A program made the translations under genes and the position numbers. Source: a virus. Taken from it: 64,000 nucleotides of DNA. Shown here piece by piece: positions 5,959 to 63,226 of the stretch. The stretch spans positions 1-64,000 of the IMG/VR virus record IMGVR_UViG_3300031578_000004. One strand, given 5' to 3'. Position 1 is the first letter of the stretch; each line of letters starts with the position of its first letter. The notes under the pieces are model-generated. The model saw nothing but the letters and a program-made list of their open reading frames with translations. It had not been told where the DNA came from and made no database searches.

Positions 5959-5960
5959 TT

Positions 5961-44589: not shown

Positions 44590-46011
44590 CATAGTGTTAT
44601 TTGCTTCGCTATATTCTTGAATTGTGCAACTAAACTATTTTGCTAATTTTTTCATTTGCTATGTTGTAGTAACTTTCGTCTAATTCAATTCCTATAAAGT
44701 TTCTATTAATATTTATACAGGTCAACAACGTACTTCTCCCTCTTTTTCTTGCGTAATAACAAAACCTTTTATTTGTTCGAGTGTGAGTTCTCTGCCAAAC
44801 ATTTCAATCATTTTATCACCCCTTATATCGCAATATAATATATTTAGATAAATTAGCAAGTGCCTTTCTGTATTTTTCATTTTCTTCTATACAGGCAATT
44901 GCTGTTTCTAGTATGTCTTGCATTAATACACTGTTCATACTCCCATTCAAATCATTTATCTTGTTCTTTCGTAGGTATAATTCTAAATCTTTTTTGGTTT
45001 TCATATTACTAACCTCCCGCGTTATATATTCATAGTGTTCTTGATATGTGCATCAAGTATTTGAAAAATAAAATTATATTATATCCAAATACTTGAATAC
45101 GATTTTTATGTCCTATATATCCAATAACTACTAATCCGTTAATACTGTTACACATATAAGCACCTCCATGTCCGTCTATCTTTTTGGTAATCCATTCATC
45201 ATCGATATGTTTTTTCATAATTCTCCAACTTTCATTACTTCGCGTTATATATTCATAGTGTTCTTGATATGTGCAACTATTCTATCCATTCCAAATTAAG
45301 CAATGCCTTTTTCGCCCTTTCAAGGAACTCCTTGCCAACATACAGATTATGTTTCCCGTTTTCGTCTAACGGTTCAGACTCAAAAGCCTTAATTTGTTTT
45401 GATATAAAATCAAATCCTGCTTTACTCTTGATTTTTAATTCTTCATTTCTTCTATCCAATTCTGCTATTGTTGCAATTAAACTTAAAACAGTTGTATTCG
45501 CCCAATTGAATTGTGTTTCGGCTCTCGCTTTTATTTCTTGAATTTGTTTGTCTGTAAATATTATTTCACTCATTTTAAACCTCACTTTCTGCAAATTAAT
45601 GTTACGATTCAACTTTCCCGCTCAAGATAGACAGCCATTCCTCATTAGGATTTAACCACTCGCCCGCATTGACATAAAATTGAATGTGCAATCCAAGGTC
45701 TGCGTGCTTATCATAGTGTACTTCACCATCAAATACCCTAAATGTATGTTGTCCTCTAAACTCCCTTGTATCAGTATTAAAATGTAACTCGTAAACCAAA
45801 CTAATTTCATGTCCTCTTGCTACTTCAATTGCTTTTTTCAATGCATCATCAAATTTGTCATATAAGAAATAATCGAACTCACCATTTAACGTTACTAAGT
45901 ATTCAAACAATGGTTTTTCTGTCTTTTTCAGCATTGGGTATTTCACATTTTCACCTTCTTTTTATTACGTAGTTTTATTCAGATAGTGACACTATTTTCT
46001 TGAAATGTGTA
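44590..46011. repeat. Gene-boundary hairpin repeat, cluster 1 (about 44590-44630, 45018-45052, 45241-45277, 45968-46011)
   Basis: Shared TTCTTGAWWTGTG right arm and ATAGTG core; 45018-45052 and 45241-45275 are identical over 35 bp. Confidence 0.85.
44630..44740 (-). pseudogene. C-terminal fragment of a beta-class DNA methyltransferase
   Basis: Reads GRSTLLTCININRNFIGIELDESYYNIANEKISKIV* with no start. Confidence 0.7.
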
Positions 46012-47200
46012 GCATTATTTTAATAAAATTAAATTCTTTAACATAGTTAATCTCCTTTCTATATTTCCTCCAAATACCTATACCAAGGCAATTTTAATAA
46101 AAACTATCTTCAAATTGACTACAAATATCATCTGCTAAAGACTTAGCACCTTCCGCAATCTTATCATCTGTCATTATTTCTTTATTTTTATCAATAACCT
46201 CAAACCACAACTTATCACCATATCCATATAAAGAACATTCATCACCATAAAAATTTAATATATAAAATCCATATTGGCTATCGGTATAAGAATCACATTT
46301 GCAACCAGTTTTATATTTGCCAAACTTAACTTCTCTAGTTACCCAATCTTTCCATATACTTTTTACTTTACTACCTTCTATGACTTTTTATTGTTTTGGT
46401 CTAGTAGGTTTGTGTCTCTCATTTATATTCTCCTTTCTTAATTTTCACTCCTTTGATGGTCTTTTTATTTATTTTTATATTTATTCATAAAATAAAACTG
46501 TGGTATTACTATTAAAAAGAGTATCCAGAAACGTTGTGTATAGACACTTACTATGAATATCGCCATTAGGATAAAAGCACCTATAAGCATATCTCTTAGA
46601 AAAATCCAGTTCTTATTTTTAATATCGGTATACACTATGCTAAATAATATTACAAAAATCATTAGTGTATTTACTATAGGAATAATAGGTATATAATATA
46701 TTTCTTTCAAAACTTGCTTAAAAGTCTTTTGTTTACTAACTGGCATATACCATGCCATAATACATATCATAAATGATAGTAGATACATGAATAACCACGT
46801 TGTTATTAAATTTAACAATATTTTATTCCTCCTATAAATGTCTATTTTTATAAAACTTATAATCTAATCTAAGCATCAGTCTAAGTGTTTTAAAGGCATT
46901 TTCTTCAGAACTTCCAATTCTTATCATATATGTAATAAATCTTGAAATTAGTGATTCACAAGTAACTAAACTACCTATAACAACACCTAATAATATCCAC
47001 CATATAAACAAATTCTTCCTCCTTTATTTCACGACCAAATTGTTCTTCTATCTAAATTGAATTACTGATACCAATAATTAAAAATCCTAAGAATAAATCA
47101 TTTGACATACCTAATGTTAATCCAATTCTAAATTCATCAGTAGTTCCAATATAAGTAACCCAATTTCTAGTAATCCATTTTTCTAACCAAAACTTTTTCA

Positions 47201-47416
47201 TTATTTATCCTCCTTTAAACAATCATATATGTCCTCATTATGTATTTTCTGACACCCACAACTTTTTGTATGATTATTCTTTAAATCTGCACCACGAACA
47301 AAAACTTCTTTATCACTTCCACAATCACACTTGCATAGCCATATACTTTTGCCTAAATATTTCATTGCTGTTAAATGATTAAATTTTAATCCTGTTAAAT
47401 CAATTAATTTACCCAC
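47201..47416 (-). pseudogene. N-terminal remnant of an HNH/AP2-type homing endonuclease
   Basis: DLTG.KF..LT...WLCKCDCG...L....TKSCGC with no nuclease domain. Confidence 0.7.
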
Positions 47417-47427
47417 GTAAATCCTCC

Positions 47428-48072
47428 TTAATAAGTCTTGAAATAATCTTCCATATTTTTATGTTTAAATCTATCTTTCCAATTAGGTAAATCTTGCATC
47501 TCAGGCATATACTTTTCAAAGTGCATTACTGCAAAAGCATTCCATACAACAGCAGCCGAATGGTCTTCGTCATCCCAACCATCTATTAATTTAGTTAAAT
47601 GTCTCATACCACTATCAACACATCTTGAAATAGGCATCCCTTTTTCCCAATTTCTATCACTGTATTTATATGAGCCTAATTCTCCCCATTTTGCAAGTCT
47701 TATCAATCCTTTCGGTGATAGTAAATCATATCTACCTAGTTTATTTATTAATTCATATTTTGTTATTTTTATTGTAGATTCTGTTTCTATAATCTGAATA
47801 TAGTTTAAAATATTAGCTCCTACACCAGCTATAAAATCCTCTGTGCTATTACCACTTATATATTCAACATAGCAATAGAAAGCTTCATTTAAATAATCTT
47901 CTTTACTTTTAGTTGAATATTCTTCAATATGTTTTTCTATGTATTTTGCAGTTCTTCTTAATCCCTCTGTAGCTATTAAATCAAATCTTCCTTTACCTGT
48001 GGTAGTGTCTCTAACTGCTCCTGTACCAAATTCTTGTCTCTCTCCTGAGTCATGCATTTGACCATCAATCAT
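47428..48072 (-). CDS. dATP/dGTP diphosphohydrolase-like (DUF5664) protein
   Basis: GAVRD...KGRFDL, G..KY.DRNWEKG, S.MRHL, EDH.AAV.WN. Confidence 0.8.
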   Translation of the reverse strand: MIDGQMHDSGERQEFGTGAVRDTTTGKGRFDLIATEGLRRTAKYIEKHIEEYSTKSKEDYLNEAFYCYVEYISGNSTEDFIAGVGANILNYIQIIETESTIKITKYELINKLGRYDLLSPKGLIRLAKWGELGSYKYSDRNWEKGMPISRCVDSGMRHLTKLIDGWDDEDHSAAVVWNAFAVMHFEKYMPEMQDLPNWKDRFKHKNMEDYFKTY

Positions 48073-48089
48073 TCTGTTCTATTCCTCCT

Positions 48090-48734
48090 TTAATTTCTTT
48101 TTAATATAATAATATTTGCTTTAGTTAAACCGAAATCCATAGCCTTTTGTGAAACTTTTTCACCTGTATCTTCCATAAAGAAGTCTATCTTATTACCTTT
48201 GATTAATCTTCCTGTATCTTCGGCGTGATATATTCCTGAAAAGTTTTTATATTCTTCATTAGTAAACTGAATATAAACTTTACTACCTAATGGTATAACA
48301 CTTGGGTCAACTGCTATTACTCTTGCTGTCTTATATGTATGACCTTTTAAATCAAATCCTGTTCTAGTAATGCCATAACCCCTTGATGTTATTTTCTTTC
48401 CACAGCTTTGTACGGATAAATCATAGGCTGACACTGTAAATCCTTCTAATATTTCATATGTATTTTCTTTTACTTGAGCCTTTGGTTTAGGATTATCCAT
48501 CCACTCTCTCAACTCAACAGGTAAACCATTCCAATTCTCTAAAAACTCATTTTGTTCCTTTGTAAATATGTATATGCTTTTATTACTTTTATATTCTTCG
48601 TTCTTTGTATTTTTTAAATTATTCGCATTACCAAACAATATCACAGCTATTAAAATTATTCCTAGTAAACATTCATATAACCTGTATTTATCCACATCAT
48701 CTTGATACTTTTTCATATGTATAACCTCCGTCAA
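48090..48734 (-). CDS. Membrane-anchored 3D-domain (lytic transglycosylase-like) protein
   Basis: SAY, GITRTG, IAVDPSVIPLGS, AEDTG.LIKGNKID; N-terminal TM helix. Confidence 0.88.
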   Translation of the reverse strand: MTEVIHMKKYQDDVDKYRLYECLLGIILIAVILFGNANNLKNTKNEEYKSNKSIYIFTKEQNEFLENWNGLPVELREWMDNPKPKAQVKENTYEILEGFTVSAYDLSVQSCGKKITSRGYGITRTGFDLKGHTYKTARVIAVDPSVIPLGSKVYIQFTNEEYKNFSGIYHAEDTGRLIKGNKIDFFMEDTGEKVSQKAMDFGLTKANIIILKRN

Positions 48735-48915
48735 TTTATTATAGTACTTATTGGTGAAAAATCTAATAATTTATATCTCCCATAATTTAATTATAACACC
48801 GTTAATTTATATGTCAATACCTAGTTTTATATTTTTTGTTTTGTATTATAAATCGTAACAAATGGATTGCTATATCTCGTATAACATTAATCCAATTGCT
48901 ACTTTTTTATATGTT

Positions 48916-49476
48916 CTATTGTTTGCTTAATTGTTTTATGTAACTTATGTTATAGCAGACCAAGCTTTTTAAATTTCTTTTCTGTAAGTAGAAACCGTAT
49001 ATGTCAGAGGCATCTAATCCAATATGTATTAATCCTAAGATTCTATCAAATATATGCTGTTCTATTGGTTCAAGAAATAGCTCTTGCAAAGTCATATGGA
49101 GTGCCGAGTGACACTCATATTTAATCATTTTATCCATTACACCTAAATATTCATCTGTACTACCCCTACTATCTAATATGTATCTTCTATATTTCCTAAA
49201 TTGCTGTGCAATATTTCCATCAGCATCATAAAACTTTTCATAAAACACTTTAAGTCTTTCTGTTGTGTTACAAAGTAAGTTTGCTAACTTGATAAAATAG
49301 TAGCTGTGAAGCTCTAGGATGCCTTTAAAGACATTTTGGGGATATATATAGTTATAATAGTATAATACTTTGTTGTTTTTAAGACCTAATATCTCATCAT
49401 TTAATCCTAATTCAAATATAAACCTATTAACCTCTGCAACCATTTCTTGAGCAGATAACTTAGTGTTTTCCTTCAT
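48916..49476 (-). CDS. Hypothetical protein (186 aa)
   Basis: aaggag RBS; isolated gene divergent from the sRNA candidate. Confidence 0.6.
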   Translation of the reverse strand: MKENTKLSAQEMVAEVNRFIFELGLNDEILGLKNNKVLYYYNYIYPQNVFKGILELHSYYFIKLANLLCNTTERLKVFYEKFYDADGNIAQQFRKYRRYILDSRGSTDEYLGVMDKMIKYECHSALHMTLQELFLEPIEQHIFDRILGLIHIGLDASDIYGFYLQKRNLKSLVCYNISYIKQLSKQ

Positions 49477-49534
49477 GTTTTTCTCTCCTTTACATTATAA
49501 TTTGGTGTTGTAAATTTTTGTCGAAAACTTTTGT

Positions 49535-49645
49535 TTGTATTATAAAGAGAAAAACATTATAATGATTTGTAGGCAAAAGTCGTGAACTCGGCAAAAGACA
49601 CACGATTGCTACAGAGGCTAGAGGAAACTCTAGCTTTTTGTTTTT
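49535..49645 (+). ncRNA. Candidate about 75-nt small RNA with promoter and terminator
   Basis: TTGTAT-17-TATAAT (49535-49563); bulged hairpin gtaggcaa..tcgtg/cacga.ttgctac; terminator gctagag-gaaa-ctctagc plus T run; no ORF. Confidence 0.6.
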
Positions 49646-49695
49646 CTCAAACTTTTTTGTTAATTGTTTTTTAATTAAATATGTAGAACATTTTA

Positions 49696-49737
49696 TTTTA
49701 TATCTCTTATTTTATATCTCTTATTTTATATCTCTTA
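49696..49737. repeat. Tandem repeat, 3 x 14 bp
   Basis: (ttttatatctctta)x3. Confidence 0.9.
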
Positions 49738-49772
49738 TTTTATTACCTCAACAAGAACACTCGTGACTTCAG

Positions 49773-51011
49773 TCATGAGATGAATTGTTGACAATCTATA
49801 ATCCATGATTTTCTAGCCTGTATTCTTTCCATTTTACTAAACTTAGGAATAGGTTTTAAATTAATCTTATTTCCTTGAATATCCATTAAAATTGCATAAC
49901 CTGTAGACATTCTCCCCTTGATAAAATATTCATTACCCAAATACCTCACCTTATCAAACTTTCTAAAACCTTTAATTTTACCTGTGTTGATTCGTTGCTC
50001 ACTTCTAATGCCTTTCGTTTGCTGACAATCACCATCGGAAACACACTTTTTTAACAATATTATATTGTTTTTAAATTGAATTTCATTCCCTTGACTTGCA
50101 ATAACTACAGCATCCATGTAATGCTCTTTAGGCAAGTTCAATAATTGTCTATGTTCTTTGGTTATAAATCCAAAGGTTTCTTCCGCATTGGGTAATAACT
50201 TCAATAATTGAGTTCTTATGCTATTCATTTGAGTAGCATGTTTTAATTGCCCTTTGATTTTTCCACCTTTTAAAGTAATATTTCCTTCATGTAAATTATC
50301 ATGACAGGTTTTACATAAAGTTATCAAATTACTTTCTTCATCTGAACCTCCATTTCTTCTAAAGGTTATATGATGTACTTCAAGTTTACTATTCTTATTT
50401 TTATCTTTACAATGTTGACAGGTGTAATTATCTCTATTTAATACATATGCCTTAGTATTAGCAAATCCATAATTAATGCCTTTTTGATATAACCACTTAT
50501 TCCATAATACACTAGGATTCTTTAAAGCATGTGTATCAAATGTAGCAGTTTCTAATATTACTTTTGTAATAGGCAATATTGATTTTACAAAATTAATTTC
50601 CTTTAAATGGCTGTTTATTTTACTATTCATTGTGGGAGAAAATCTGTCCTTTTTAATTGAATTTTTTCTGTTCAACCATCTTGCTTTTCTGTATCTGGTT
50701 TTCCTATTACGTCTATTTCTGCGATATTTAGAACGTCTTGTCATCTTGTCTGAAATATCATTTCTAATTTCAACTTGCGACATATAAACAACATTACCAT
50801 TATCTTTAACTGCCGAACTACCAATTTTACTACTTCCAGTATCAATGCCTAATATAATATTTTGAGTGTAGTTTGTAGTTTGATAAAGAAGTTTAATAGT
50901 AAAGGGTATTCTTCTAATACATTTAGCTTTGCATTGTTTGAGCAGTAATCTTGCAATCGCTGATGAACAAGGCATCAATGGTGTGCCATCATAATTAATT
51001 ACATAAACCAT
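49773..51011 (-). CDS. iscB: RNA-guided endonuclease IscB (412 aa from MVYVIN)
   Basis: PLMP, RuvC-I GIDTG, Arg-rich bridge helix, RuvC-II ILETA, HNH (EVHHI...NLITLC..CH), RuvC-III HYMDA. Confidence 0.95.
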   Translation of the reverse strand: MVYVINYDGTPLMPCSSAIARLLLKQCKAKCIRRIPFTIKLLYQTTNYTQNIILGIDTGSSKIGSSAVKDNGNVVYMSQVEIRNDISDKMTRRSKYRRNRRNRKTRYRKARWLNRKNSIKKDRFSPTMNSKINSHLKEINFVKSILPITKVILETATFDTHALKNPSVLWNKWLYQKGINYGFANTKAYVLNRDNYTCQHCKDKNKNSKLEVHHITFRRNGGSDEESNLITLCKTCHDNLHEGNITLKGGKIKGQLKHATQMNSIRTQLLKLLPNAEETFGFITKEHRQLLNLPKEHYMDAVVIASQGNEIQFKNNIILLKKCVSDGDCQQTKGIRSEQRINTGKIKGFRKFDKVRYLGNEYFIKGRMSTGYAILMDIQGNKINLKPIPKFSKMERIQARKSWIIDCQQFIS

Positions 51012-51024
51012 ATAATCAACTCCT

Positions 51025-51292
51025 GATAAATTCTCTACATTACTGTAGGATGTGCGTATCTTATTACTATTACCATAATAAGAATTCGTCTTCATCTCGA
51101 CAAAGATAATTAGGCTTTTGCACTTATATCACCGAACCTTACCTTAGTTCTACTTAAATATAAGTGATAGAGCAACGGTCTGATGCGTCAACCATAGGTA
51201 TCATGACCTAACTATCGTAGTATCCGTTTCTGGGTACTGAATCTGGTGAACTTAGCATTAGATGCCTACGACTTTAGTCGTGGGTAGTTCAA
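51025..51292 (-). ncRNA. omegaRNA (HEARO-like) scaffold
   Basis: Structured region upstream of iscB starting ttgaactacccacgactaaagtcgtaggc...gttcaccag...ctacgatag; boundaries approximate. Confidence 0.8.
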
Positions 51293-51444
51293 ATCCGTAC
51301 AATGTATGTTCGTTTGCTATAATAATAACACTATTATGTTAATTAATATAGTAAAACCATATTGCATAATTCAACATAATTCGACATATTTTTCATATAC
51401 AAATGTTAGTTATATTCACAATATACTTAATTTATCAATATTAT

Positions 51445-51494
51445 AGAATGTATGTTCGTATTTATAGTATATTACTTATTGTATTTATTCGCAA
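51445..51494 (-). promoter_or_regulatory. sigmaA promoter with LexA (Cheo)-like box near the start site
   Basis: TTGCGA-17-TATACT; agaatgtatgttcg at 51445-51458; second degenerate copy at 51299-51312. Confidence 0.6.
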
Positions 51495-51741
51495 GGTATT
51501 TATGGAAATTAAGGTAATATTTTTTATATCTTTTATCAAATATTATTGACATTATGCATTAATTTGATAATTAAGCCACTTTCCTTTTATTGATTTATAA
51601 TATAATCTTTTTATGGCTTTCTTTCTAATTCGCCATGATTTAGAATGTATTGATATATTTGTTAATCTTATTTCTTGTTTTACTGTTAAATATGACATGT
51701 TTTATTCCTCCGTTGAACTGCCTTCCAAATATCGTTTTTTT

Positions 51742-53175
51742 CTAAACTTCATCTTTATCCCATATGTCTTTTCTTACAAACAAACTATCCCAATTCAAAC
51801 CAAAATCTTCAGAGTTACATTCATTTTCAAAATCACTACGAACATTATCAAAATAATCGTCCATATCACTCCAGCTATTACTATACTCAAACATATACTT
51901 ATATTGTTGACCATCTGTTGTTTCAACTAATCCTGCTACGCTATGAAAGACCCCTATACCATATTCAAATGTGCTTATTGATTTAATCTCCATTTTTGCT
52001 TCCTCCTAATATAATTGACTTTCGACAGTATCCCGATTCTATAGACATTTCTGATTGTTACAACCATTGGAAATACTATATCTCCGATTTTTGGTTTTTC
52101 ATTAATTCAGCAATCCTTTTGGTTTGTTCTTCATTCATAAGCCATAACTTTTTAGGAACTAGATTATTTTGTGAAATACTTTCAATATAATATTTTATTC
52201 CCTTGTATTCAGCCATAACGCCATATACATATCCTCCAGTTTCTTTTACAACTTTGGACTTTAGTATATTTACAATTTCTACAGGCTGTTTGGATTTAAG
52301 TGTAAAATCCTTATATTGTTCATCATCGGCACTAAAATTCAATATACCTCTCACCCGTTTACCGTTATCAACGTGTGCTATGTCTCCAATATTAAATTCT
52401 GAATTCATATATTTTCCACCTCTCAAATTTTATTACGTTCCTCTACAACCTTAAGATGTTTATTTGTCTATATTTATAGCCATGTTTTTAGGATTATACT
52501 CCATTACGCAATATGGGTAATAATCGTCTGTATTTGCAGTGCCTATCGCTAATACAAGTTTATTAGTGGTTGTGTCCCACATTTCTAATACATCATTAGT
52601 ATAGTAGGTTTCACTAGCTTTCATTTTGCAATATACTTCTACGGATGGTAAAGCATTTTTTATTATTTGTTCTGTTTCTTCTAACTCGTTCATATAACTT
52701 CTATATCCATCACCAGGATCTTCAATTGCCTTATATTTCTTATTGTCTAACCCAAATATGATAAAATTTCTATCCCCTTCACAATCTTCATATTCTATAT
52801 AGGCTTCATTTCCTTGTTCCACTCCTGTTAATAAGTGTATTCCTTGTAAATCTGATAATTGCATAATTTATACCCTTCCTTTCAATACTTTTTATTTCTC
52901 CTTATATAATACTATAGGTTACACTATAATTTTTAAGTAAACTTCATCTAATATATCATCATCACTTTTCATTTCTGACGGATTACCTTTAAATCTTACT
53001 CCTGCTTTTACCAACGCATCGAACTCATTTTCCTTCTGTAGTAAATCATAATACCTTATAGCAGGTATTTTCACCATCTTATCTATCATTACCCCTTACA
53101 CCCTCCCTTGTTCCTATCCTCTACAGTTGTTTTGGTTGAATGTGAAAAATTTTGTTTGTATTGCACTTTCCATAT
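51742..53175 (-). other. Small hypothetical genes
   Basis: ORFs 51742-51993, 52076-52426, 52460-52864 and shorter ones, behind a TTGACA promoter near 53235. Confidence 0.6.
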
Positions 53176-53309
53176 ATAGGTACCTCCTAAATTTAATCTC
53201 TTACTTATAATTATATAACACATATTTCCATTGTCAATACCTAAATCAAAATATTTTTATATTAATCATTCTATAATAGACACCGAAAATTATATCTCGA
53301 TGCCAACTC

Positions 53310-54275
53310 TTATAAATAATCCTCAATTTTCTGTTTTGTCTGATACCAATAAGTTTCTCCAGTTTCACCATATCTAAAATATTCATTTATTGCGATATAA
53401 TCTTCTTTCTCTAGTTTATCTTTTCCTAATTCTTCTTTTAATCTCTTAGCATATAAAATTACCCCACTCCACCAAAGATTAGTTATGTTTAAAAATGGTA
53501 AATCCATTAATGTAAATATATTACTCATTCTTCTACTTACAAGTTGTCTAGGTATTTTATCCTCTGTGCTTCGTTTTGTGGCTCTGAAAATGTATCCTGT
53601 GACTTTGAGTGGGAATGATTTTACACGTGCAGTTGGAGAGGGTTCTCCATTATTAACCTCATATCGTTCTTGATTAATCGCATCAGTAATCAATATAATT
53701 GTAGACTCATCTACTTCTAATGTTCTAATGACTTCATCATTTTCATTTCTTAAATCAATCTTTTTAGATATTGTGTGACAATCTTCAATTCTTAAATTTG
53801 ATAATTCTATCACTGTTAATCCTAGTGTAGTTAATTTGATTAGTAACGCATCTTGAGCATTAGCACAAAACTCTATTATGTCATCTAGGTCTGCTTGATT
53901 AGTAATGTGTTTATTGGCTTGCGCTACTTTATTAACATATTTACTATATTGACTTTCTCCACCTCTAAACATTTCAGATACCCAATTAACCTTACTCTTT
54001 ACATAGCCATTTTCCAAACACCATTGTACATATTGTTCAATTATACTTCTTCGTGTAGCAAATCCAATATCAGATTTTGACCTAAAACCTAAAAACATTC
54101 TATCAAAATCTTGAGTATTAAATTCATACATATCTTTTTCAAGTTCAAATTCTGTCTTAGCTGCACTTTGTAAAACATATTTAATATGTTCTTGTGTAGC
54201 TTCGGAATCATATGTCTTAACAAATCGTTCTTTTATTTCATTATTATATAAATCAAATGTTCTCATTTTTCTCAC
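53310..54275 (-). CDS. MrpR/YopR-like repressor (degenerate tyrosine-recombinase fold)
   Basis: YNNEIKERF...E.ELEKD..EF N-terminus, GL...ELSNL...D; lacks HxxR and LGH; directly after a YopQ-like gene. Confidence 0.75.
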   Translation of the reverse strand: MRKMRTFDLYNNEIKERFVKTYDSEATQEHIKYVLQSAAKTEFELEKDMYEFNTQDFDRMFLGFRSKSDIGFATRRSIIEQYVQWCLENGYVKSKVNWVSEMFRGGESQYSKYVNKVAQANKHITNQADLDDIIEFCANAQDALLIKLTTLGLTVIELSNLRIEDCHTISKKIDLRNENDEVIRTLEVDESTIILITDAINQERYEVNNGEPSPTARVKSFPLKVTGYIFRATKRSTEDKIPRQLVSRRMSNIFTLMDLPFLNITNLWWSGVILYAKRLKEELGKDKLEKEDYIAINEYFRYGETGETYWYQTKQKIEDYL

Positions 54276-54281
54276 TCCTTC

Positions 54282-55589
54282 CTAAACAAATTTTCTGAAA
54301 TAGTTAGCTATCTTTTTATAGTTGGTTTTTGATAATTTATGAGTATCAAATTTAAAACTATCAATCCAAATTGAGTTTTCTAAGCTAAAATCTATTTTAG
54401 ATAATATTTCGTTAAGACGAGTTCGCCAATCTGTGTTATCTTTTAATTCTTTAGACAAGGTAATATAACCAATAAAACTGTATTTATGATTCATAAAACT
54501 TTCATTCTTAGTTGTTTTGAAATCTGTAAATATATGAGCTACTTCATTTAAAAATTCTACAATCCATTCGCTTAATACTATTGCATCTCTCTTTGAATTT
54601 GTTTTTTCATTCAATTCATATTCATATTTTAAAGAATTAATAAGTGTCTCAAATGTAGTTAAAGAGTCACCATTAATAATATCTGTATTGTGTACTCCAA
54701 TCTTTCCTCTGAGGTCACTAGAAGGACTTTCATTAACTTTCTTTACTATTATAGTTTCAAGTTGAGTTGTGTCTTTAGATTGAATATAAACCTTACTTAT
54801 CTCATTATGTTCGTTTTCTTGTTTTATATATTGTATTGCTTTATCAGTATCATAATTTCTAATATAAACACCTGTAATATACTCGACATCAGAATTATCA
54901 TTGATAGCTGATAACATTCCCATTGAACGATGCATTCCATCAAGTATATCAAGTTCTCCACTATTAATAGTTAAAGTGTGATTCTTAGCATCATAAACAA
55001 ATTCGTCTGTTCCATCTTGTAATAAATTTAATGTTATATGATTTGTTTCTTGAGTACCATTTAATATATTTTCTTTGATACTTTGTACAGATTCATTGTT
55101 AATGTCAATAATCTCTACAAGTTGGTCACGAAATTTAGTTTGTTTAGTTTGTCTTTGTGTTTCTCTATTATAAGTAACTAGATTTCTTGCCCACCAATTA
55201 TTAACTATCTGACATGGTATTGCTGGAGCATCATATATATCGTCTTTTACCTTAAACACACCTTCAATAACTACAGGGAATCCACCCATTTTTATCTTTT
55301 CTCTTCTATATGAGTTTCCATCTGTTATTTCAGTTTCATTATACCAAGTTGTAGGATTAATAGTGCGTTCATCTGTATTGTCATGAAATAATTTAGTGAG
55401 TAAATATAAAGTAGGATTATCTATTGTCTCAACTGGAATATGACCATCTACTATTCTTAATACATCTCCACTGTAAAATCCTCTTTCGACAAATCCTTCA
55501 GTAACTTTACTTATTACATTTTTATTTGCGTTATACTTTTCAAATATGACCAATAACTCTTTTTCAAGCGTTTTTCTATCCTTTTTCAC
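54282..55589 (-). CDS. YopQ-like DGQHR/DndB-domain protein
   Basis: YN.ETQR, ILDGMHR, QEN. Confidence 0.7.
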   Translation of the reverse strand: MKKDRKTLEKELLVIFEKYNANKNVISKVTEGFVERGFYSGDVLRIVDGHIPVETIDNPTLYLLTKLFHDNTDERTINPTTWYNETEITDGNSYRREKIKMGGFPVVIEGVFKVKDDIYDAPAIPCQIVNNWWARNLVTYNRETQRQTKQTKFRDQLVEIIDINNESVQSIKENILNGTQETNHITLNLLQDGTDEFVYDAKNHTLTINSGELDILDGMHRSMGMLSAINDNSDVEYITGVYIRNYDTDKAIQYIKQENEHNEISKVYIQSKDTTQLETIIVKKVNESPSSDLRGKIGVHNTDIINGDSLTTFETLINSLKYEYELNEKTNSKRDAIVLSEWIVEFLNEVAHIFTDFKTTKNESFMNHKYSFIGYITLSKELKDNTDWRTRLNEILSKIDFSLENSIWIDSFKFDTHKLSKTNYKKIANYFRKFV

Positions 55590-55730
55590 TTAATTCACAC
55601 CCTTTTTATATTTATCATAATTAAATTATAGTATAATTATATCCTTCATGTCAAGCAATTATACTATTCATTATGTATTAATAGGTGTAAACTTTATATT
55701 TATTGTTGGTGCAAATGGAATTTTATAGGT

Positions 55731-56099
55731 TTAAGTTGCAATTGTTTTGTTTTTATGTACGTTTTTATTTATTTTATTGTTTAAATTATTATGTATTGAT
55801 AATTGCTCAAATAACTTATCAATTCTTCTTTCTCCACTTCTACGTCTGTCATAGATTGTTTTAGTATCATGTTTGTTTATGTATTCTATCACTTCATTTA
55901 CATTGATAAATTTGTGGTTGTGCATATGACACATGTGTTTACAAACACCTTTATTTTTATGTTTCAATCTAAAGTGTGTGTCTTCATCTGAAATTATCCA
56001 AGTATTAAGTGCTGTTTCTATGTGGATTTGGTCAGGGTATATTTTATAGTTAATGTTATATCTGTTACATAGGCTTTCGACTCTGTTGATGTCAATCAT
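55731..56099 (-). CDS. His-rich hypothetical protein
   Basis: gaggtg RBS; KHMCHMHNH. Confidence 0.6.
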   Translation of the reverse strand: MIDINRVESLCNRYNINYKIYPDQIHIETALNTWIISDEDTHFRLKHKNKGVCKHMCHMHNHKFINVNEVIEYINKHDTKTIYDRRRSGERRIDKLFEQLSIHNNLNNKINKNVHKNKTIAT

Positions 56100-56168
56100 A
56101 ATGTTTTCACCTCTGTTTCTTATTTTTTTTAATTAGTTTTATATAGTGTGTATAGAGTTAGAGGGGAC

Positions 56169-56882
56169 TTAAAACCCCTCTAGTTTGATTGGTGTTACCT
56201 TACTATTACTACAGTAGTTATTTACTGCCTGTATTCTACTTCGTAAATTAACGACAATATTTTCATCCTTTATTTTTACAATAGTTTCATCAAGTTGTTT
56301 TATTTGATTTTTTTCTATGTATATTTCACAGAGGGTTTCATAAGCATTATTAAAAAACCACTCTGCATTATTAAAAGAATCATCTTTTGTACTTATTATA
56401 TTATGTACTTCTGTTAAAAGTTCTTTTATCTTTTCATCATCTTTTTCAATCTTTGCTATATTAAAGTCCATATGAATACGTTCATCTTGCATCTTATTGT
56501 TTGTGAAATAGTCACTGCATTGTTTAAAAAACTTTATTGCTTTTTTATCTAATTTCAAAGAATAATAACAATTACCCATTACCCAATTACATTCCATATG
56601 TTCTTTAAAATCATTTGTGTAATTTTTACTTTCAGATACATAACTTAAAGCTTTTTTACATTGACCTTTTTTTCTATAACACATTGCAAGTATTAAATTG
56701 AAAAACCATAAATTATGATTGTCTTCGGGATAATCATTTTTTATCATTATTAATATTTCATCACATTTTTTTATTGCTTCGTCATATCTATCCTTATTTT
56801 TTAATGTAACAACCTCTTCTTGTTCTCTCACAAAATTATCTTTCATCGTGCAATCCTCCATTCTATAAATTTTACATTGCAT
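56169..56882 (-). CDS. TPR-repeat protein (start possibly 56846)
   Basis: LAMCYRKKGQCKKALSY and MGNCYYSLKLDKKAIKFF TPR units. Confidence 0.7.
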   Translation of the reverse strand: MQCKIYRMEDCTMKDNFVREQEEVVTLKNKDRYDEAIKKCDEILIMIKNDYPEDNHNLWFFNLILAMCYRKKGQCKKALSYVSESKNYTNDFKEHMECNWVMGNCYYSLKLDKKAIKFFKQCSDYFTNNKMQDERIHMDFNIAKIEKDDEKIKELLTEVHNIISTKDDSFNNAEWFFNNAYETLCEIYIEKNQIKQLDETIVKIKDENIVVNLRSRIQAVNNYCSNSKVTPIKLEGF

Positions 56883-57528
56883 TTTGCTTTCTATTATCTG
56901 TAGATATTTTTATAAATGTTTTTTCTTTTAAAACTTTACTGTAATCATATCCATACTGATTGCAATATGATTGTAATTCTTTAACTAGTCTTATATGCAA
57001 TCTTGCATCTTCAGGGTCAAAACCATTTATGTGAGCTTCACACTCTACTTTATTAATCCAATTAACTGTATCCTTTATATATTCTAAATCAATTGTTCCT
57101 GCTTGAATTTTAACTGCTGTGTCAATTTGTTCCATAATATAATTTGAACATCTTCCGACTTTAGATATTATAAGTTTTTTGTCAATTGTGAAAACCTGTT
57201 CCACTAACACTAATGAATCAAATTTAAGTCCTGAATCCTCTAATACTTTTACATGTGTTGGCAGTTTGTTTTTATTAAGATTGGATGTTAATGTTGCTAC
57301 CCATATTGTTGGAGAAAACCTATTATTCACATTATTGCTTAAAACTACGGCTGGTCTAGGTTTTGATTGTATACTGTGGTCTCTACCACTCTTTATTAAT
57401 TGGTCGAAATCTACAAATATTAAATCACCCTTTTTAACTTCTAATAATTTTTGTACTTCATTGATTAGATTCTTGTTTGCTACATTGTATGTAGTATGAC
57501 TGTTAATATTTTGAATGCATGTTGTCAT
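56872..57528 (-). CDS. PemK/MazF-family endoribonuclease with C-terminal extension
   Basis: KGDL.FVD, Q...RPAVVLSNN.NNRFSPT.WVA.LTS, LPTHV, DS.VL.EQ..TIDK. Confidence 0.85.
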   Translation of the reverse strand: MTTCIQNINSHTTYNVANKNLINEVQKLLEVKKGDLIFVDFDQLIKSGRDHSIQSKPRPAVVLSNNVNNRFSPTIWVATLTSNLNKNKLPTHVKVLEDSGLKFDSLVLVEQVFTIDKKLIISKVGRCSNYIMEQIDTAVKIQAGTIDLEYIKDTVNWINKVECEAHINGFDPEDARLHIRLVKELQSYCNQYGYDYSKVLKEKTFIKISTDNRKQNAM

Positions 57529-58236
57529 TTAATTTATTCACTCCTTTGTAATAATTTTATATTTTGTGTTTTTTGTTGAATTGGTCTATCTTTGGTTTGT
57601 ATTATTCTTGTGTTGTGACTTATTACCTTACTTTTTTCTGTTTACCTTCTTGGACTGCTTAGTCATCTTTTTTTTATTGCTTTTCTTCTTTTGCTTTGCC
57701 CAAGCTGTTAAGGGAGTATCTTTGTTCATATCTACAATTGTGCATTCCTTATCCCCTAGCTCAACTTCAGCTTCTTCCTCGTGTTCATTTGGTACAAATT
57801 GCAAAGCTTCCCCAAACATTTCTTTTAATTCCATTAACTCCTCAGCTGAATTAATACGATATAATTTACCTGTAGCTACATCCATTATTTTCCCTCGCTT
57901 TCAATTATTTAATTACATATAGTGACACTATTTTATTGAATTGTGACTTAGCTAAAAGCCTTAAAGTGTTCTGCTAATGTTTCGTTTGACATTTCAATCC
58001 AGCCATTCACATCAGATTCTAGTCTAACTTCTCCACCTATAAATCTATAATTTTCATTATCTGGAAGATGCCAAACTGTGCCTTCTTCCACAATCAGATA
58101 CTCATTATCTAAAGTAAAGCCATCGTCGTCACGTTTTTCTAAAGAAAATCCTTTAATACATTCAAACATTTTTCAAACCTCCTTTCTTACGACATATTTT
58201 ATTCAGTAGTTGTATCTACTTCTTGAATTGTGCAAC

Positions 58237-58311
58237 TTATCTGCTCATACCTAGTGCCATAGCTGTTGCCCCTAATATCATACCTATTATTAATATCAAA
58301 ACACCTTCCAT
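58237..58311 (-). CDS. 24-aa hydrophobic peptide between two repeats
   Basis: MEGVLILIIGMILGATAMALGMSR with aaggagg RBS. Confidence 0.55.
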   Translation of the reverse strand: MEGVLILIIGMILGATAMALGMSR

Positions 58312-58712
58312 TCAATATCCTCCTTCGCATTTTATTCAGATAGTGACACTATTTTATTGTGATGCGACACTATCCTTCATTTGAAACCCTTATTGCAACT
58401 TGCTCTAATGCTTCAACTTTATCAAAAGTATCTGTTTCGTAGAAATTAAATAAGTGTATTTGGTTTTCGCCTTTACTTTCGTATATCTGATAAAGTTTTA
58501 CCGTATACCCCTTGCGACTTATTTCAAGAGATAGATGCAGTTTCACTTCTTTTGCAAGGTCTTTATTTTTAATTGTATTTGTTTCAATCCAAACCCATAA
58601 ACCACAAAATGTTAATTTATTAAAGTCCAATTTATCCCTCCTATCGTTTTGTTGCCCTTAACAATACGTCGCATTTTATTCAGATAGCGACACTATTTAA
58701 TTGAAATGTGTA

Positions 58713-58865
58713 TCAATCTTTCATATCTTTGTGGTCATTGCATGATTCGTCTGATTCTGTTTTCTCTTTCAAAACCGGGCAATATCCATATCCATCATCT
58801 TTGTCTTGCCAATGTTCACAACTACTACACGTTGTAAATTCATACCTGTATCTTTTCCTTTTCAT
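58713..58865 (-). CDS. 50-aa Cys-rich protein between two repeats
   Basis: MKRKRYRYEFTTCSSCEHW...GYCP...SC. Confidence 0.55.
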   Translation of the reverse strand: MKRKRYRYEFTTCSSCEHWQDKDDGYGYCPVLKEKTESDESCNDHKDMKD

Positions 58866-59330
58866 CCCTTCACTTCCTTATGGCACAGTTTATTCAGATA
58901 GTGTCCTTAAAACTGTTTTTGCATATTTAGGAAATACATAAAATGTATCTGGTAAATGATTTTTCATATTAACTCGCCTTCCCTTTCTTAACATTCTTAT
59001 TCTTATCGACCACAAATTCTAACACTTTTTCAGTATTAATATCTATAAATTTTTCTATCAATGTATCTGATGGTAATTTACCATAATGTTCTTTGTACCA
59101 TGCTTTGTAGTCTTGTATAGTCATTGTCATATAATTTTTCACTACCTCCTTATTATATTGGCTTAAACTTTAATATATGACCTTGCAGAGCCATCTAGTG
59201 ACTCATTTGGAGTGTTTACATTAAACTTTTGCTGATAACTTTCCAATGAGTTTTCATCTTTTTGATATTGTAGCCAGTCAGCACTTTCTGATTTGAATGT
59301 TCTCATTTTTATTTATTCCTCCTTCTATTT

Positions 59331-60260
59331 TTATATATTTGATATTATACTACTTAATGGATTTGAATTAGCAACTTTTCTTTGTTGTTCTTTGTCGATA
59401 TGTGTATAAATTTGCGTAGTTGAAATATTACCATGCCCCAATGCTTCTTTTACTGCAATAATATCCCCACCATATTTATACATTAGCGTAGCTGCTACGT
59501 GCCTGAGGGAATGTGTAGAATATTTTTCTGTATCTAATCCTGCTTTCCCTATATAATTTTTAACAAGTGTATAAACTGATTTATCACTAATTCTTTCTTT
59601 TATTTCACTTAAAAATAATGCTTTCTCATTTACTTGCGGTCTTACTTTTAAATACTTTTCTATTGCCGATAAACAAGCAGGAGTTAATATTACAGTTCTC
59701 TCCTTATTCCCCTTACCTATAACTGTCAATAAATCACCTTTAATATGGTCTATATCAATTAAGGTCATTTCCTTACGTCTTAAACCACAATTAAGAAATA
59801 TAGTTAATATGGCATAATCACGTTCTTTGTTTCTATTGTGATTATTTTTCTTGTTAACACTATTTAATAACTTTATAGATTCTTCTAAATCAAAATATAC
59901 AGGTTTTCTTTCAGGTATCTTCGGAGTTTCCATATCCAAAGCAGGATTAACTATAATAACTTTAATCTTTGTTATATACTTAAAAAACTCTCTTATACTT
60001 GTTGTCTTTCTTGCTCTAGTGCTTTCAGCTTCTTCTTTGCCTGTTAGATAGTTCATGTAAAATTCTAAGTCTTGATATTCTATTGAATTAAAAAACTCCT
60101 TATCAAATGTATTTATGGATGCTGTCAGATTCTTGTTTTCTCGTATATAGTTAAGTAATTGAACATTATCTATCTCATAGCTGTTAATCGTGTTCTGTGA
60201 CCTTCCTTTTGATTTTAAGGCTAGAAGGAAATTATTGAGTAGACGGTTATTAGTTTTCAT
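59331..60260 (-). CDS. XerC/D-like tyrosine recombinase
   Basis: GLRRKE, GKGNKER, HSLRH, LGH, TTQIY all intact. Confidence 0.93.
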   Translation of the reverse strand: MKTNNRLLNNFLLALKSKGRSQNTINSYEIDNVQLLNYIRENKNLTASINTFDKEFFNSIEYQDLEFYMNYLTGKEEAESTRARKTTSIREFFKYITKIKVIIVNPALDMETPKIPERKPVYFDLEESIKLLNSVNKKNNHNRNKERDYAILTIFLNCGLRRKEMTLIDIDHIKGDLLTVIGKGNKERTVILTPACLSAIEKYLKVRPQVNEKALFLSEIKERISDKSVYTLVKNYIGKAGLDTEKYSTHSLRHVAATLMYKYGGDIIAVKEALGHGNISTTQIYTHIDKEQQRKVANSNPLSSIISNI

Positions 60261-60784
60261 TTATTATTCACACCTTTTTATTTTATTATTTTTATAGTTT
60301 GTGTCCTTATTATATCATATGATGGATTTATCTGTATAATACTATTTTAGAAACTATTTTGATAATCTTTCAATTGTATTTTTACAAGATTCCTTTTCTC
60401 CTTCAGTAGATGCACTATCATTTATTAGTGCCTGAAGCTTTCTAATTTTTCTTTCATTGTTTAATTGTTGTTCTGCTTTAATTAGTCTTTCATAAAGCAT
60501 TGCACCTTCTATTTCATTGCTCATTATTTTATCTGCTTTAATTATCATTTTTATAGTCTCCTTTCTTATAATTAATTAATGATGGTCATAATATCCTAGT
60601 ACCCAATTTAGTGTCTGCATCTGTTCTATACAAGCACGTTTAGCCTTATCTTGTAAATTTATATCTGTTATATTTTTTGAATCCTCTAGTTGCCATTTAA
60701 TCCAATCAATTTCTTTTTTAATTTCTTCTTGGGTTTTCATTGTTGCACTTCCTTTCACCATTTTGTTGAAACTCTTATTTTGAC

Positions 60785-61045
60785 TTACATTACACTTTTA
60801 TATTTTTTCTGTGTGCTTAATCCACCCCTGATATGTTTTTCCTCAGAATTCATTTCCATTACAATTCCTACTTCTTCAGCCAGTCCACGATTGATTTCTA
60901 AAAGTTTTTGTGTTATATCCTTATGAACTGTACTTTTTGATATTCCAAATTTTTTAGCTGTTTCTCTTACTGTTGTTATATTATTGATTATGTACTGAGC
61001 TTCTTGTATAATTCTGTTTTCTAAGTATTGTTGATTTCTTGTCAT
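60785..61045 (-). CDS. spoIIID: Sporulation transcription factor SpoIIID homolog
   Basis: TVRETAKKFGISKSTVHKD...HIRGG.ST..KY. Confidence 0.92.
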   Translation of the reverse strand: MTRNQQYLENRIIQEAQYIINNITTVRETAKKFGISKSTVHKDITQKLLEINRGLAEEVGIVMEMNSEEKHIRGGLSTQKKYKSVM

Positions 61046-62261
61046 TTGATTTACACTTCCTTTTTATTTTTTTATTTTGCTTTTTAAGGCTTCTATTTAC
61101 CCTCTACAAAGAAATAACTACCTTGCCTATACTCTAGTATTATACCTGATTTTTCTATTGTTAAGATGCTCTCTAGCGTGTTGTAAGCATCTGTATTCAT
61201 ATTCAAATTTCTCATTACCTTCTGTTATTTCTAATATGAATAATGATTCTGTCATGGCTTTTCACTTCCTTAAATTTATTATCTTATCTAAATACTAACA
61301 CTCGCTTTCCGTTGTGTCAATACTTTTATAGTTTACTTTCCTTGTATTTTATATAGTATTTTTATATACTTCTATGTATCTATTTAAGTAACTGTCACTA
61401 TACCAAAATAATTCTTTCCAATAAGTTGTTATATCTGCTGTTACTTTGGCTTTTGAGTAATCAAATGTATCTATGCCTATTACTTTGATTGCGTTCACTG
61501 TTATTGCTCCTTTCAGCATTATGGTGTAATTGCTGTTATATGTATTTTAACGTTTATACTGCTTTTGTTTATAATAGCAGTATATTTGTCAAATTGTTAT
61601 AGAAAGAATTTTATAGCTAGAAACATCATCAATGCCATAGTGACGGCTGTTATAATTATATGTGTTAATTTGCTAAACTCCATCGACTTCATATTGTTAA
61701 ATGGTTTTATATTGTTTGTCTTTGGTGTTTCAAAATCAATTTGTCTACTGTTTGATGATTGCATGGCTGTTATACTGTTCTGCTATGTTTTGTAATTTAT
61801 TCCAGTTTATTTTTCTTTTTATTTTTGTTTCTACAGCATCTTTAAACTCATTCAAACTACTATAATTTATGTCTGTATCCAATCTATCTAATACATAATT
61901 TATTTCCATATTTGCATCGTATATGGCTGTATACCCATCTATGTCTTTTCTTGAAGTGTCTAATAATGTAATAACTAAACCACCTGTATAATTAATGTAA
62001 TTTAAAACATATTTATTGTTATATTTCATTTCTTTCCATCCTTTCATATTTACATTATTTTACATGACTTTGAATCTACTGTTTTATAGGCTGTTTACAA
62101 AAGGGACATTTTTCTAATTCCCCTTCATAGAATATACTAACAGTTTCACCACAAGAACAGGTTTTGTAAATAAAAAGATTTTCAACTACTTCATTTTTAT
62201 TATCCATGTTTCACTTCACTCCTAATTATTTATTTCAGTTTCCTGTTTCCTGCTTATCAAA

Positions 62262-62537
62262 TTACTTTAATAATGCAATAATCTCTTCTATTTTTAATAT
62301 CAATACCTCTTTCTTATCAGGAGTAACATCCACATCTTCAGTTAAATTAATTAACATTCTTTCAATTGTGTTAAGATACTCTGTTTCAGGAGTATATTTC
62401 TTATAGCAAACCATATCATTATGAATAACTATCTCAAATGGGTCTCCTTCTCTAATACTCAATGTTCTTCTAATTTCTTTAGGAATAACCACTCTTCCTA
62501 AATCGTCAATTCTTCTTATAATTCCAGTTGCTTTCAT
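62262..62537 (-). CDS. AbrB/SpoVT N-terminal DNA-binding domain protein
   Basis: MKATGIIRRIDDLGRVVIPKEIRRTL.IREGDP.EI; lacks the SpoVT GAF domain. Confidence 0.88.
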   Translation of the reverse strand: MKATGIIRRIDDLGRVVIPKEIRRTLSIREGDPFEIVIHNDMVCYKKYTPETEYLNTIERMLINLTEDVDVTPDKKEVLILKIEEIIALLK

Positions 62538-62694
62538 TTTATATTTCCACCTTTCAATATTTATTTATTTCCGTTTGATTCGTTACACTCATATTACCAT
62601 ATGTTGTTATTTGCTGTCAAGTGGTTTTTGTAATTATTTTTATAGTTTGTTTTCTTTATATTATTATATAAATTCCGTCAACTATTTATACCTT

Positions 62695-62928
62695 GCTGTT
62701 ATAGGAAATTTTGAAAAGTCCTTCAACCATTTCAGGCTCGCTGTTATAGTAACTTTTCAAAATCTCAGGGTCTACCACACATCGGCTGTTATAGTGATTT
62801 TACCTTTTCTAAACTAAATACCCTATAATATTCTTTGGCTGTCTTGTCTGTAATGCTGTACTTCTTACAGACTTCTGTTATAGACATTTTGTTAAAATCC
62901 TTGATGTAATTTTCCTTCGCTGTTATAG
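62695..62928. repeat. KCTGTTATAG motif on a 45-bp register
   Basis: Copies at 62695, 62740, 62785, 62874 and 62919. Confidence 0.75.
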
Positions 62929-63226
62929 TCCATTTTGTGTCCTGCTCTGGTTGTTCTAGTTGCATCGGTTGTATTAGTTCTGTTATATTAATATTTAGAA
63001 TGTCGGAAATTAGTAAAGCTGGTATAAAGTCAACTTTATATGAATTATAAACTTTTCGTATTTGGTAAATAGTTTGAATTGATAGTTTTGACTGTTCTGC
63101 TATATACTGATTTTTAAGTCCAGAGGCATCTATAAAGCGTTTTATATTGGCTTTGATGATATCTTTATCAGTTGAATTATATTGGCTTATAAGGTGAATT
63201 AATTGCTTTTGTTGTAGTATATCCAT
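62789..63226 (-). CDS. XRE-type HTH protein
   Basis: NIKRFI..SGL...YIAEQSKLS.QTIY...L.I.ITEL; possible second HTH at the C-terminus. Confidence 0.65.
   Translation of the reverse strand: MDILQQKQLIHLISQYNSTDKDIIKANIKRFIDASGLKNQYIAEQSKLSIQTIYQIRKVYNSYKVDFIPALLISDILNINITELIQPMQLEQPEQDTKWTITAKENYIKDFNKMSITEVCKKYSITDKTAKEYYRVFSLEKVKSL

Follow-up and report, generated by a model that had tools for sequence, protein, structure and literature searches.

A repeated element of about 45 nt fills the gaps between small accessory genes of a large SPbeta-like temperate phage, and we read it as a boundary element similar to the PeSL sequences of T4-type phages, that is, as a hot spot of homology-driven shuffling of single genes within variable islands. 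We place the odds of this reading at somewhat better than even (roughly 0.55). The DNA analysed, called the window throughout, is the stretch of 64,000 nt that forms the first 64 kb of the virus record IMGVR_UViG_3300031578_000004 (G000; 130,358 bp, 28% G+C). An earlier note on the window, made from the sequence alone, had described region 57599-60260 as an integron-like array of gene cassettes lying beside a tyrosine recombinase and had proposed a phage system for cassette capture and shuffling distinct from integrons. Part of that proposal stands, as cassette units do move, but neither a tie to the recombinase nor a mechanism like that of attC is supported. The integron-like reading is unsupported because enzyme and sites occur apart, there is no fixed crossover point, no fold more stable than shuffled sequence and no attC boxes, and the enzyme is not an IntI.

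The two sequences quoted in the note, at 58325 and 58669, were found exactly as given, and the repeat is real. Its 22-nt core has three matches in the window versus 0.01 expected from shuffled sequences, and an nhmmer profile built from the copies themselves and run over both strands of all 130,358 bp of G000 returned five full copies with E values of 1.1e-11 to 1.5e-6, the next hits having E values of 0.08 and 0.13. A covariance model recovered only the known copies plus four degenerate ones in 297,292 bases; its search of G000 covered the window and the second half of G000 was covered by nhmmer. The whole record holds five full and five partial copies, and all copies and fragments lie on the minus strand, which is the coding strand. 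As the note had proposed, the site sits between a stop codon and the next ribosome-binding site: all copies begin 0-3 nt past the stop codon and run to the ribosome-binding site of the following gene. The copies are confined to two islands, at 44.6-46.0 kb and 57.6-58.9 kb. Instead of the roughly ten copies that the note had counted in 57599-60260, that region contains four full copies (A, B, D and E) and two fragments (58884-58925 and 57603-57619); the second island, about 12 kb from the main array, has full copy C and three degenerate copies. The members are as follows.

58325-58370, minus strand: full copy A, between an 86-residue gene and a 24-residue hydrophobic peptide gene (nhmmer E 1.6e-11; covariance model 65.7 bits; fold -8.0 kcal/mol, z -1.45); an outer 6-bp and an inner 5/6-bp pairing are possible.
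58669-58714, minus strand: full copy B, between a 50-residue Cys-rich gene and the 86-residue gene (nhmmer E 1.1e-11; covariance model 62.2 bits); on the coding strand one pair of the inner stem is a T.G wobble.
45968-46013, minus strand: full copy C, in the second island upstream of a 114-residue gene (nhmmer and covariance model).
57903-57949, minus strand: full copy D, with a variant 3' arm, upstream of an 85-residue gene (nhmmer and covariance model).
58195-58240, minus strand: full copy E, with the variant inner stem GTAG-ATACAA-CTAC and its 6-nt loop (nhmmer and covariance model); the 5' arm is identical (16/16) to that of the degenerate copy at 44614-44629.
58884-58925, minus strand: fragment F, the right half of the palindrome and the 3' arm (nhmmer E 0.13), overlapping the final codons and stop of a short open reading frame.
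57603-57619, minus strand: 5' arm only, directly past the stop codon of the 85-residue gene.
44587-44630, minus strand: degenerate copy consisting of the 5' arm and the outer palindrome halves around a 10-nt insertion (nhmmer E 0.082; covariance model E 0.78).
45018-45052, minus strand: degenerate copy lacking the left palindrome half, the first of two perfect 35-bp duplicates.
45241-45275, minus strand: degenerate copy, the second perfect 35-bp duplicate, directly past the stop codon of gene 45277-45612.

The two perfect duplicates bracket a single gene, 45030-45218. Read on the coding strand, the element consists of a 5' arm (GTCGCA..CAATAAAAT or TTGCACAATTCAAGAA), a 13-nt palindrome (ATAGTG-T-CACTAT) and a 3' arm, CTGAATAAAATGCGAAG, which leads into the Shine-Dalgarno sequence.

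Exact scans of IMG/VR with two core patterns gave no match, and neither did a 21-nt core in 185,579 species genomes. An exact core scan of metagenomes matched one contig, L002, an otherwise unrelated phage sequence that encodes an ERF annealing protein, a DUF1351 protein, two methyltransferases and terminase genes. This contig has an array of its own at 7.6-12.1 kb, composed of three full copies (7676, 10626 and 10940) and several half elements. At the nucleotide level L002 and G000 match only at 45593-45979 (97.4% over 387 nt), at 57603-57947 (82.9% over 345 nt) and in the repeats, and a tblastx comparison found only the two genes within these segments and one weak match of 48 residues. The two genes are as follows.

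45602-45946, minus strand: 114-residue gene, a shared cassette, 97% identical in nucleotides with L002.
57628-57885, minus strand: 85-residue gene with a basic C-terminal tail, a shared cassette, 83% identical in nucleotides with L002.

They lie 12 kb apart in G000 and have a single gene between them in L002. Transfer of the 114-residue gene is recent, because it is 97% identical between two such phages. The homology has four borders: (i) one falls within the 3' arm of copy C, (ii) the second lies 9 nt past the stop codon of the 114-residue gene, where L002 continues into a bare 3' arm and G000 into unrelated sequence, (iii) the third is at the 5' edge of copy D, and (iv) the fourth is just past the 5' arm at 57603-57619, where L002 continues into the palindrome and 3' arm and G000 again into unrelated sequence. 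All four are in or at an element, at four different positions. Together with the 35-bp duplicate around one gene, these borders bear out the idea that the repeats bound single-gene mobile units, but they do not give the single crossover point expected of attC. Conservation is also higher in the element than in the gene that follows: from the palindrome to the ATG, copy D agrees with its L002 counterpart at 45 of 46 positions, versus 206 of 258 in the gene behind (Fisher p 0.0013). Copy A and one L002 copy are 93.6% identical over 47 nt, with unrelated flanks on both sides.

A closer relative in IMG/VR, G001 (locus L001; 137,947 bp), was reached via the recombinase and is colinear with G000 in blocks of 67-84% nucleotide identity. 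The two genomes share the recombinase (59604-60327) and a mazF/TPR block (56219-57564). The gaps in the alignment at 57564-59604 and 43851-48495 together contain all copies of the repeat, and the gap between the conserved blocks, about 2 kb in G000, measures 4.9 kb in G001, where it encodes ten different proteins. Both repeat clusters lie in gaps whose gene content is wholly different from that of G001.

Further evidence came from three soil metagenome DNA runs of three studies, the contigs of which were mapped on 43500-61500. The bins of the two shared genes had summed depths of 163/167/86 and 129/143/67, versus about 25-30/12-20/5-10 for their neighbours, so that both genes stand at 5-8 times the depth of their flanks in all three metagenomes. 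Contigs end at the borders of the shared genes (45600/45614, 45937/45949 and 57734/57914), and two joints, 57939 to 45593 and 58368 to 57642 (both going back), match the gene order of L002 rather than circles. Given the raised depth, the contig ends at borders and the joints in L002 order, the two shared genes are present in several genomic contexts in the community, with branches of the assembly graph falling at the elements. As these runs may be the source from which G000 was assembled, they are evidence for alternative contexts and no independent proof of G000. One additional joint, 56759 to 60271, was seen in all three runs; it leaps over 3511 nt, linking the interior of the TPR gene to a point directly upstream of where the recombinase begins, and its depth (94/93/38) is above that of the phage itself with only 24 nt matched on the shorter side, so it may represent another organism or a short repeat.

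Pairing of the outer arms, which the note had described for the site in general, is found in subsets of copies (TCGCAT/ATGCGA in copy A and two L002 copies; TTCA/TGAA in copies B, C and E) but is not a general feature. The statement that the inner stem varies yet still pairs holds for copy E with its GTAG-ATACAA-CTAC stem. RNA-parameter folds of nine copies ranged from -1.9 to -8.3 kcal/mol with z scores of -1.45 to +1.07 versus dinucleotide shuffles, and for none of the nine was the fold energy beyond the shuffle range. With these parameters the attC-like bulged hairpin of the note is no more stable than shuffled sequence, although in three of the nine (copy A and two in L002) the minimum-energy structure is an outer stem, a 9x9 internal loop and an inner stem. 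In the eight copies that were aligned no GTT-type R''/R' box was seen at either end, in agreement with the note that the sites lack RYYYAAC/GTTRRRY, and the absence of a U-tract after any copy was likewise confirmed. A promoter scan of 57400-60400 gave 20 sigma-70-like sites, versus 16.9 +/- 3.9 in shuffled sequences. By eye the sole -10-like word is TAAAAT; no -35 box stands 16-18 nt from it, and the Shine-Dalgarno sequence is 4-11 nt away. Promoter readings based on -35/-10 pairs on both strands, extended -10 sequences, MerR-like long spacers and antisense transcription were tried and rejected, none being consistent across copies. A terminator or RNA element was rejected also: the scan of 57400-60400 gave no terminators, and Rfam gave no match at E <= 1 in 57400-59400. 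Good promoter-like sites are found directly upstream of the recombinase, at 60373-60309, and because the copies have none the array is probably part of one long transcript.

Our explanation of these data is that the element of about 45 nt takes up the space separating a small accessory gene's stop codon from the ribosome-binding site that follows, and that the presence of the same short sequence beside many unrelated genes in several co-occurring phages would provide the homology for insertion, loss and exchange. The exchanges would be carried out by the host RecA or by a phage annealing protein (the ERF protein of L002, for example) rather than by the Xer-like enzyme. That the element is conserved above the level of the genes could be due to gene conversion among copies. 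The element would be transcribed within a polycistronic message starting upstream of the recombinase, and the AT-rich palindrome would form at most a weak stem-loop or a protein-binding site, being neither promoter nor terminator.

Several points weigh against this explanation. The breakpoint sample is small, consisting of two shared cassettes and four junctions from one contig, and G000, with a completeness rating of 78%, has no match to ERF or RecT. The truncated elements that break near the palindrome require more than a simple homologous crossover. Some variants appear to preserve a stem: copy E does so by one compensatory change of A-T to G-C, copy B and one L002 copy have wobble pairing on the coding strand only, and the degenerate copy at 44587-44630 keeps the outer stem around its 10-nt loop insertion. 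These variants hint at a fold-back function that homology does not need, but they are too few for statistics and the stems are AT-rich and weak. Neither of the activities by which a PeSL is defined is evident: the scan of 57400-60400 found no sigma-70-like site inside any copy on the coding strand and no terminator-like site. Finally, the position of the array beside a recombinase that has no assigned role is left as a coincidence by this explanation.

An unlikely but better surviving alternative is that the copies form an operator array. In this view the 13-bp palindrome (coding strand ATAGTGTCACTAT) would be a duplex site for a dimeric regulator encoded by host or phage, for example of the SpoIIID, AbrB or MrpR type, which silences or times the accessory genes, and the mosaic borders would result only from conservation of the site. 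The palindrome is perfect in four of the eight full copies, the hairpins are too weak to matter alone, and the higher conservation of the element relative to coding sequence would be expected of an operator. Candidate regulators are encoded nearby.

60785-61045, minus strand: SpoIIID-like regulator (TIGR02844, 98 bits versus a cut-off of 111.5).
62262-62537, minus strand: AbrB/SpoVT-domain protein.
53310-54275, minus strand: MrpR-like protein with the N-terminal core-binding domain (Pfam MrpR_N_CB), sharing about 28% identity with the corresponding proteins of phi3T and other SPbeta-type phages.

In the portions of Kohm et al. (2023, PMC10516654) drawn on here, MrpR has a recombinase fold and acts as master repressor in Bacillus phage SPbeta, and the repeated element of that phage, SPBRE, is the MrpR operator and is placed in promoter regions. 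In phi3T we found a motif, AGAATAAAAATAAAAT, common to four intergenic regions (upstream of aimR, phi3T_92 and phi3T_101, and the yopR-yopS gap), which lies 4-10 nt upstream of the -35 box at the first three and farther upstream in the fourth. From the k-mers common to these four regions we take AGAATAAAAATAAAAT to be SPBRE, and the GAATAAAAT of our element resembles it. Against an operator role is that a different motif accompanies the canonical promoters of G000. Of the 22 strongest TTGACA-N16-18-TATAAT sites, about 11 are preceded by A[AC]TATAAAA[CTA]TA, which in most cases abuts the -35 box and otherwise lies upstream of it by up to about 16 nt. The repeat, by contrast, adjoins no promoter. 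The sites, given by the first base of the -35 box, are as follows.

17925, 23174, 36845, 40701, 48817, 53237, 66325 and 66870, minus strand: A[AC]TATAAAA[CTA]TA sites.
77641, 80849 and 110580, plus strand: A[AC]TATAAAA[CTA]TA sites.

This motif may be the operator of the MrpR-like repressor, and hence a candidate analogue of SPBRE, and belongs to a family different from the repeat. The repeat as operator of the MrpR-like repressor was considered as the principal explanation and rejected on the grounds that a different motif lies upstream of the canonical promoters. Moreover, the spacing of the half-sites changes (1, 6 and 10 nt) while complementarity is kept, no regulator gene is common to L002 (14 kb) and G000, and AATAAAAT is frequent in this sequence, occurring 26 times on one strand and 47 times on the other. 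G001 also has an A/T-rich repeat of its own, AAATATAAAAT..., at positions 764-802, 5952-5990, 8030-8068 and 11511-11547 of L001, with TTGACA following the motif in two of the four copies (those near 764 and 8030). It would suit an operator family of the SPBRE kind common to this phage group.

Less probable still is the integron-like proposal, in which the copies are sites, possibly folded single strands, at which the adjacent Xer-like enzyme shuffles promoterless cassettes.

59331-60260, minus strand: Xer-like tyrosine recombinase of 309 residues (Pfam PF00589, 2.3e-33), not IntI, co-directional with and upstream of the array.

The arrangement is suggestive in that an intact-looking recombinase precedes co-oriented promoterless small genes, three of the four homology breakpoints are within a few nt of the palindrome, and the three structured folds, the inner stem kept in variant copies and the perfect 35-bp duplicate around one gene would also suit such sites. 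The enzyme is, moreover, without an assigned job, integration presumably being the work of a serine recombinase.

About 7.7-8.2 kb of G000, minus strand: serine recombinase (Resolvase domain), a 601-residue open frame.

By analogy with SPbeta, this protein is probably the integrase. The tyrosine recombinase is not needed for that purpose, because the serine recombinase is present and SPbeta excision, in the part of PMC10516654 used here, requires the serine recombinase SprA.

However, the recombinase belongs to the conserved backbone and is also found where the repeats are absent. The note was correct that it is not an IntI: it scored 77 bits on the integron integrase model TIGR02249 (cut-off 265) and 43 bits on NF011946 (cut-off 435), and 198 and 181 bits on its best-scoring models, NCBIfam XerC and XerD, both below cut-off. 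The orthologue in G001 (55% identity) is at the same position, and the 137,947 bp of that genome contain no copy of the repeat as judged by a 24-nt core with up to three mismatches, the profile and the covariance model. Three distant relatives of the recombinase (34-38% identity) that were examined among 501 matching records all lack an intergenic repeat array. Conversely, the L002 array has no tyrosine recombinase in 14 kb, according to lists of open reading frames and a Pfam scan of ten selected frames. Within G000 the second cluster is 13 kb from the recombinase, and four or five of the ten copies or fragments lie 12-13 kb from it. The proposed link of the sites to the enzyme is thus unsupported, and the two do not co-occur. 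The three gene junctions nearest the recombinase lack a copy, and no attI-like partner is evident. The note put the start of the array about 430 bp past the gene; the first fragment starts about 406 nt and the first full copy 617 nt past its stop codon. The lack of one fixed breakpoint and the fold energies, in the shuffle range for all nine copies, also speak against such sites. The usual core of a tyrosine recombinase site has arms around a spacer of 6-8 bp, and the 6-bp/1-nt/6-bp palindrome of our element is unlike it. Orthology of the enzyme with YopP of SPbeta/phi3T was considered, but only a local match of 31 residues was found, so we make no such claim.

An equally doubtful variant supposes a new non-IntI cassette system in Bacillota phages, with the element as its structure-dependent recombination site, in which the arms belong to the cassettes and exchange takes place at the palindrome. 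The catalyst, working in trans on a folded strand, would be either the Xer-like enzyme or a different recombinase of phage or host. If true, this would explain the kept stems, the truncation beside the palindrome and the perfect duplicate around one gene.

REP elements have an extragenic position after stop codons. That the 45-nt unit is a selfish miniature element of the REP/MITE kind, which moves itself, is mobilised in trans by a host enzyme and settles in the gaps between genes, is very improbable, for although copy A and an L002 copy agree within unrelated flanks, some copies have 6-bp terminal inverted repeats and the placement past stop codons recalls REP elements, G000 lacks a Y1 (RAYT/IS200-type) transposase (PF01797, no match), the exact core searches of species genomes and IMG/VR were empty, strict gene co-orientation and fixed stop-to-ribosome-binding-site placement are unexpected for random insertion, and there are many half elements and arms that travel with the adjacent gene.

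The remaining genes between the repeats are small.

57948-58169, minus strand: 73-residue ORFan between copies E and D.
58237-58311, minus strand: gene for a strongly hydrophobic peptide of 24 residues, flanked by copies A and E and preceded by a good ribosome-binding site.
58370-58630, minus strand: 86-residue ORFan between copies B and A.
58713-58865, minus strand: 50-residue Cys-rich ORFan between fragment F and copy B.

In size and composition the 24-residue peptide recalls the small membrane toxins of type I toxin-antitoxin systems. The two genes shared with L002 gave no Pfam or PHROG match, and a protein-atlas search found only unnamed clusters for them, with scores <= 0.86. The AlphaFold model of the 114-residue protein had a mean pLDDT of 67.6, and Foldseek versus the PDB gave no match at E <= 0.001. 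Homologues elsewhere numbered 33 for the 114-residue protein and four for the 85-residue protein, and seven loci with homologues of the former (L003-L009) have no copy of the repeat. In six of these loci, L003 and L005-L009 (Lachnospiraceae-type), a G/C-rich hairpin stands directly before the ribosome-binding site of the homologue, at about 3960-4000, and a terminator-like hairpin with a T-run follows the gene. The order of stop codon, hairpin and ribosome-binding site is the same in these Lachnospiraceae-type loci as in the repeat, and the sequences are unrelated.

Almost all genes around the array are on the minus strand. In coding-strand order the 53-60 kb region encodes the Xer-like recombinase, the small open reading frames and then the MazF-domain, TPR, DGQHR-domain and MrpR-like proteins.

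56872-57528, minus strand: MazF-domain protein, from domain search.
54282-55589, minus strand: DGQHR-domain protein, from domain search.

The SpoIIID-like and AbrB/SpoVT-domain proteins suggest a spore-forming host and interference with the regulation of sporulation. A HEARO RNA (Rfam RF02033; 101.8 bits versus a gathering score of 83) is located at 51085-51292 on the minus strand and is followed directly by a 440-residue HNH-containing open reading frame (49773-51095, minus strand). Together (49773-51292) they look like an IscB/omega-RNA (OMEGA) element inside the phage, and diverged variants occur in the metagenome contigs around 49.8-50.5 kb, at this locus. Separate from the array is another repeat of roughly 45 nt with a CGCTGTTATAG core, present in three copies (62669, 62714 and 62893; region 62663-62937) close to the start of a 145-residue gene (62789-63226).

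Among known systems, integron attC arrays are similar in that single genes, apparently promoterless, share one orientation, that the sites between them are imperfectly symmetric around a variable centre, and that a tyrosine recombinase lies alongside. Unlike integrons, the array has no RYYYAAC/GTTRRRY boxes, no evident attI, no fold beyond the shuffle range and no one position of the breakpoints, the recombinase is co-directional rather than divergent and far below the cut-off of the IntI model, and there are an orthologous recombinase without sites and sites without a recombinase (L002, 14 kb). The integron-like reading is corrected accordingly, the adjacent recombinase being a backbone gene found without the repeats.

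The morons of lambdoid phages are single accessory genes between backbone genes that have their own promoter and terminator, and short conserved sequences are found at mosaic junctions. The present case is similar in the insertion of single accessory genes and in the short conserved sequences at mosaic junctions, but neither a promoter nor a terminator could be detected, and the junctions are marked by a single defined family of repeats.

Like SPBRE, as far as described in the cited part of PMC10516654, our element is a repeated intergenic sequence of an SPbeta-type phage that has an MrpR-like protein, and it is A/T-rich with a GAATAAAAT-like word. Unlike SPBRE, which is placed in promoter regions, it lacks a promoter, is clustered inside operons and contains a palindrome.

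The closest likeness is to PeSL (promoter-early stem-loop), a mobile regulatory cassette. In the portions of Arbiol et al. (2010, PMC2839356) and Comeau et al. (2014, PMC4122927) consulted, PeSLs extend from an upstream stop codon to a downstream Shine-Dalgarno sequence before ORFans in hyperplastic regions, and recombination between them gives indels, replacements and mini-circles in T4-type phages. Our element shares the stop-to-Shine-Dalgarno placement, the concentration before small ORFans of variable regions, the presence of copies at the breakpoints of insertion, deletion and replacement between phages, and the occurrence of single genes between two copies. It differs from PeSL as described there in having no detectable sigma-70-type promoter or effective terminator (scan of 57400-60400), a 4-6 bp AT-rich palindrome instead of a stable G/C stem, about ten copies versus about 50, and probable hosts among AT-rich Bacillota, the carriers being a temperate phage of the SPbeta kind and an unrelated contig that has terminase genes. 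Since the promoter and terminator features fail, the repeat is akin to PeSL in genome evolution and not a member of the family.

Phage genomes are mosaic and the sequences at points of single-gene exchange have seldom been identified, the PeSLs of T4-type phages of Gram-negative hosts being the chief example described. In the present AT-rich soil community, two unrelated phages have exchanged single genes at places marked by a defined element of 45 nt. The promoter and terminator thought to explain PeSL conservation were not detected, which raises the question of whether the element is conserved by function, by gene conversion or by a dedicated enzyme, and the repeat offers a small testable system for asking why boundary sequences stay conserved.

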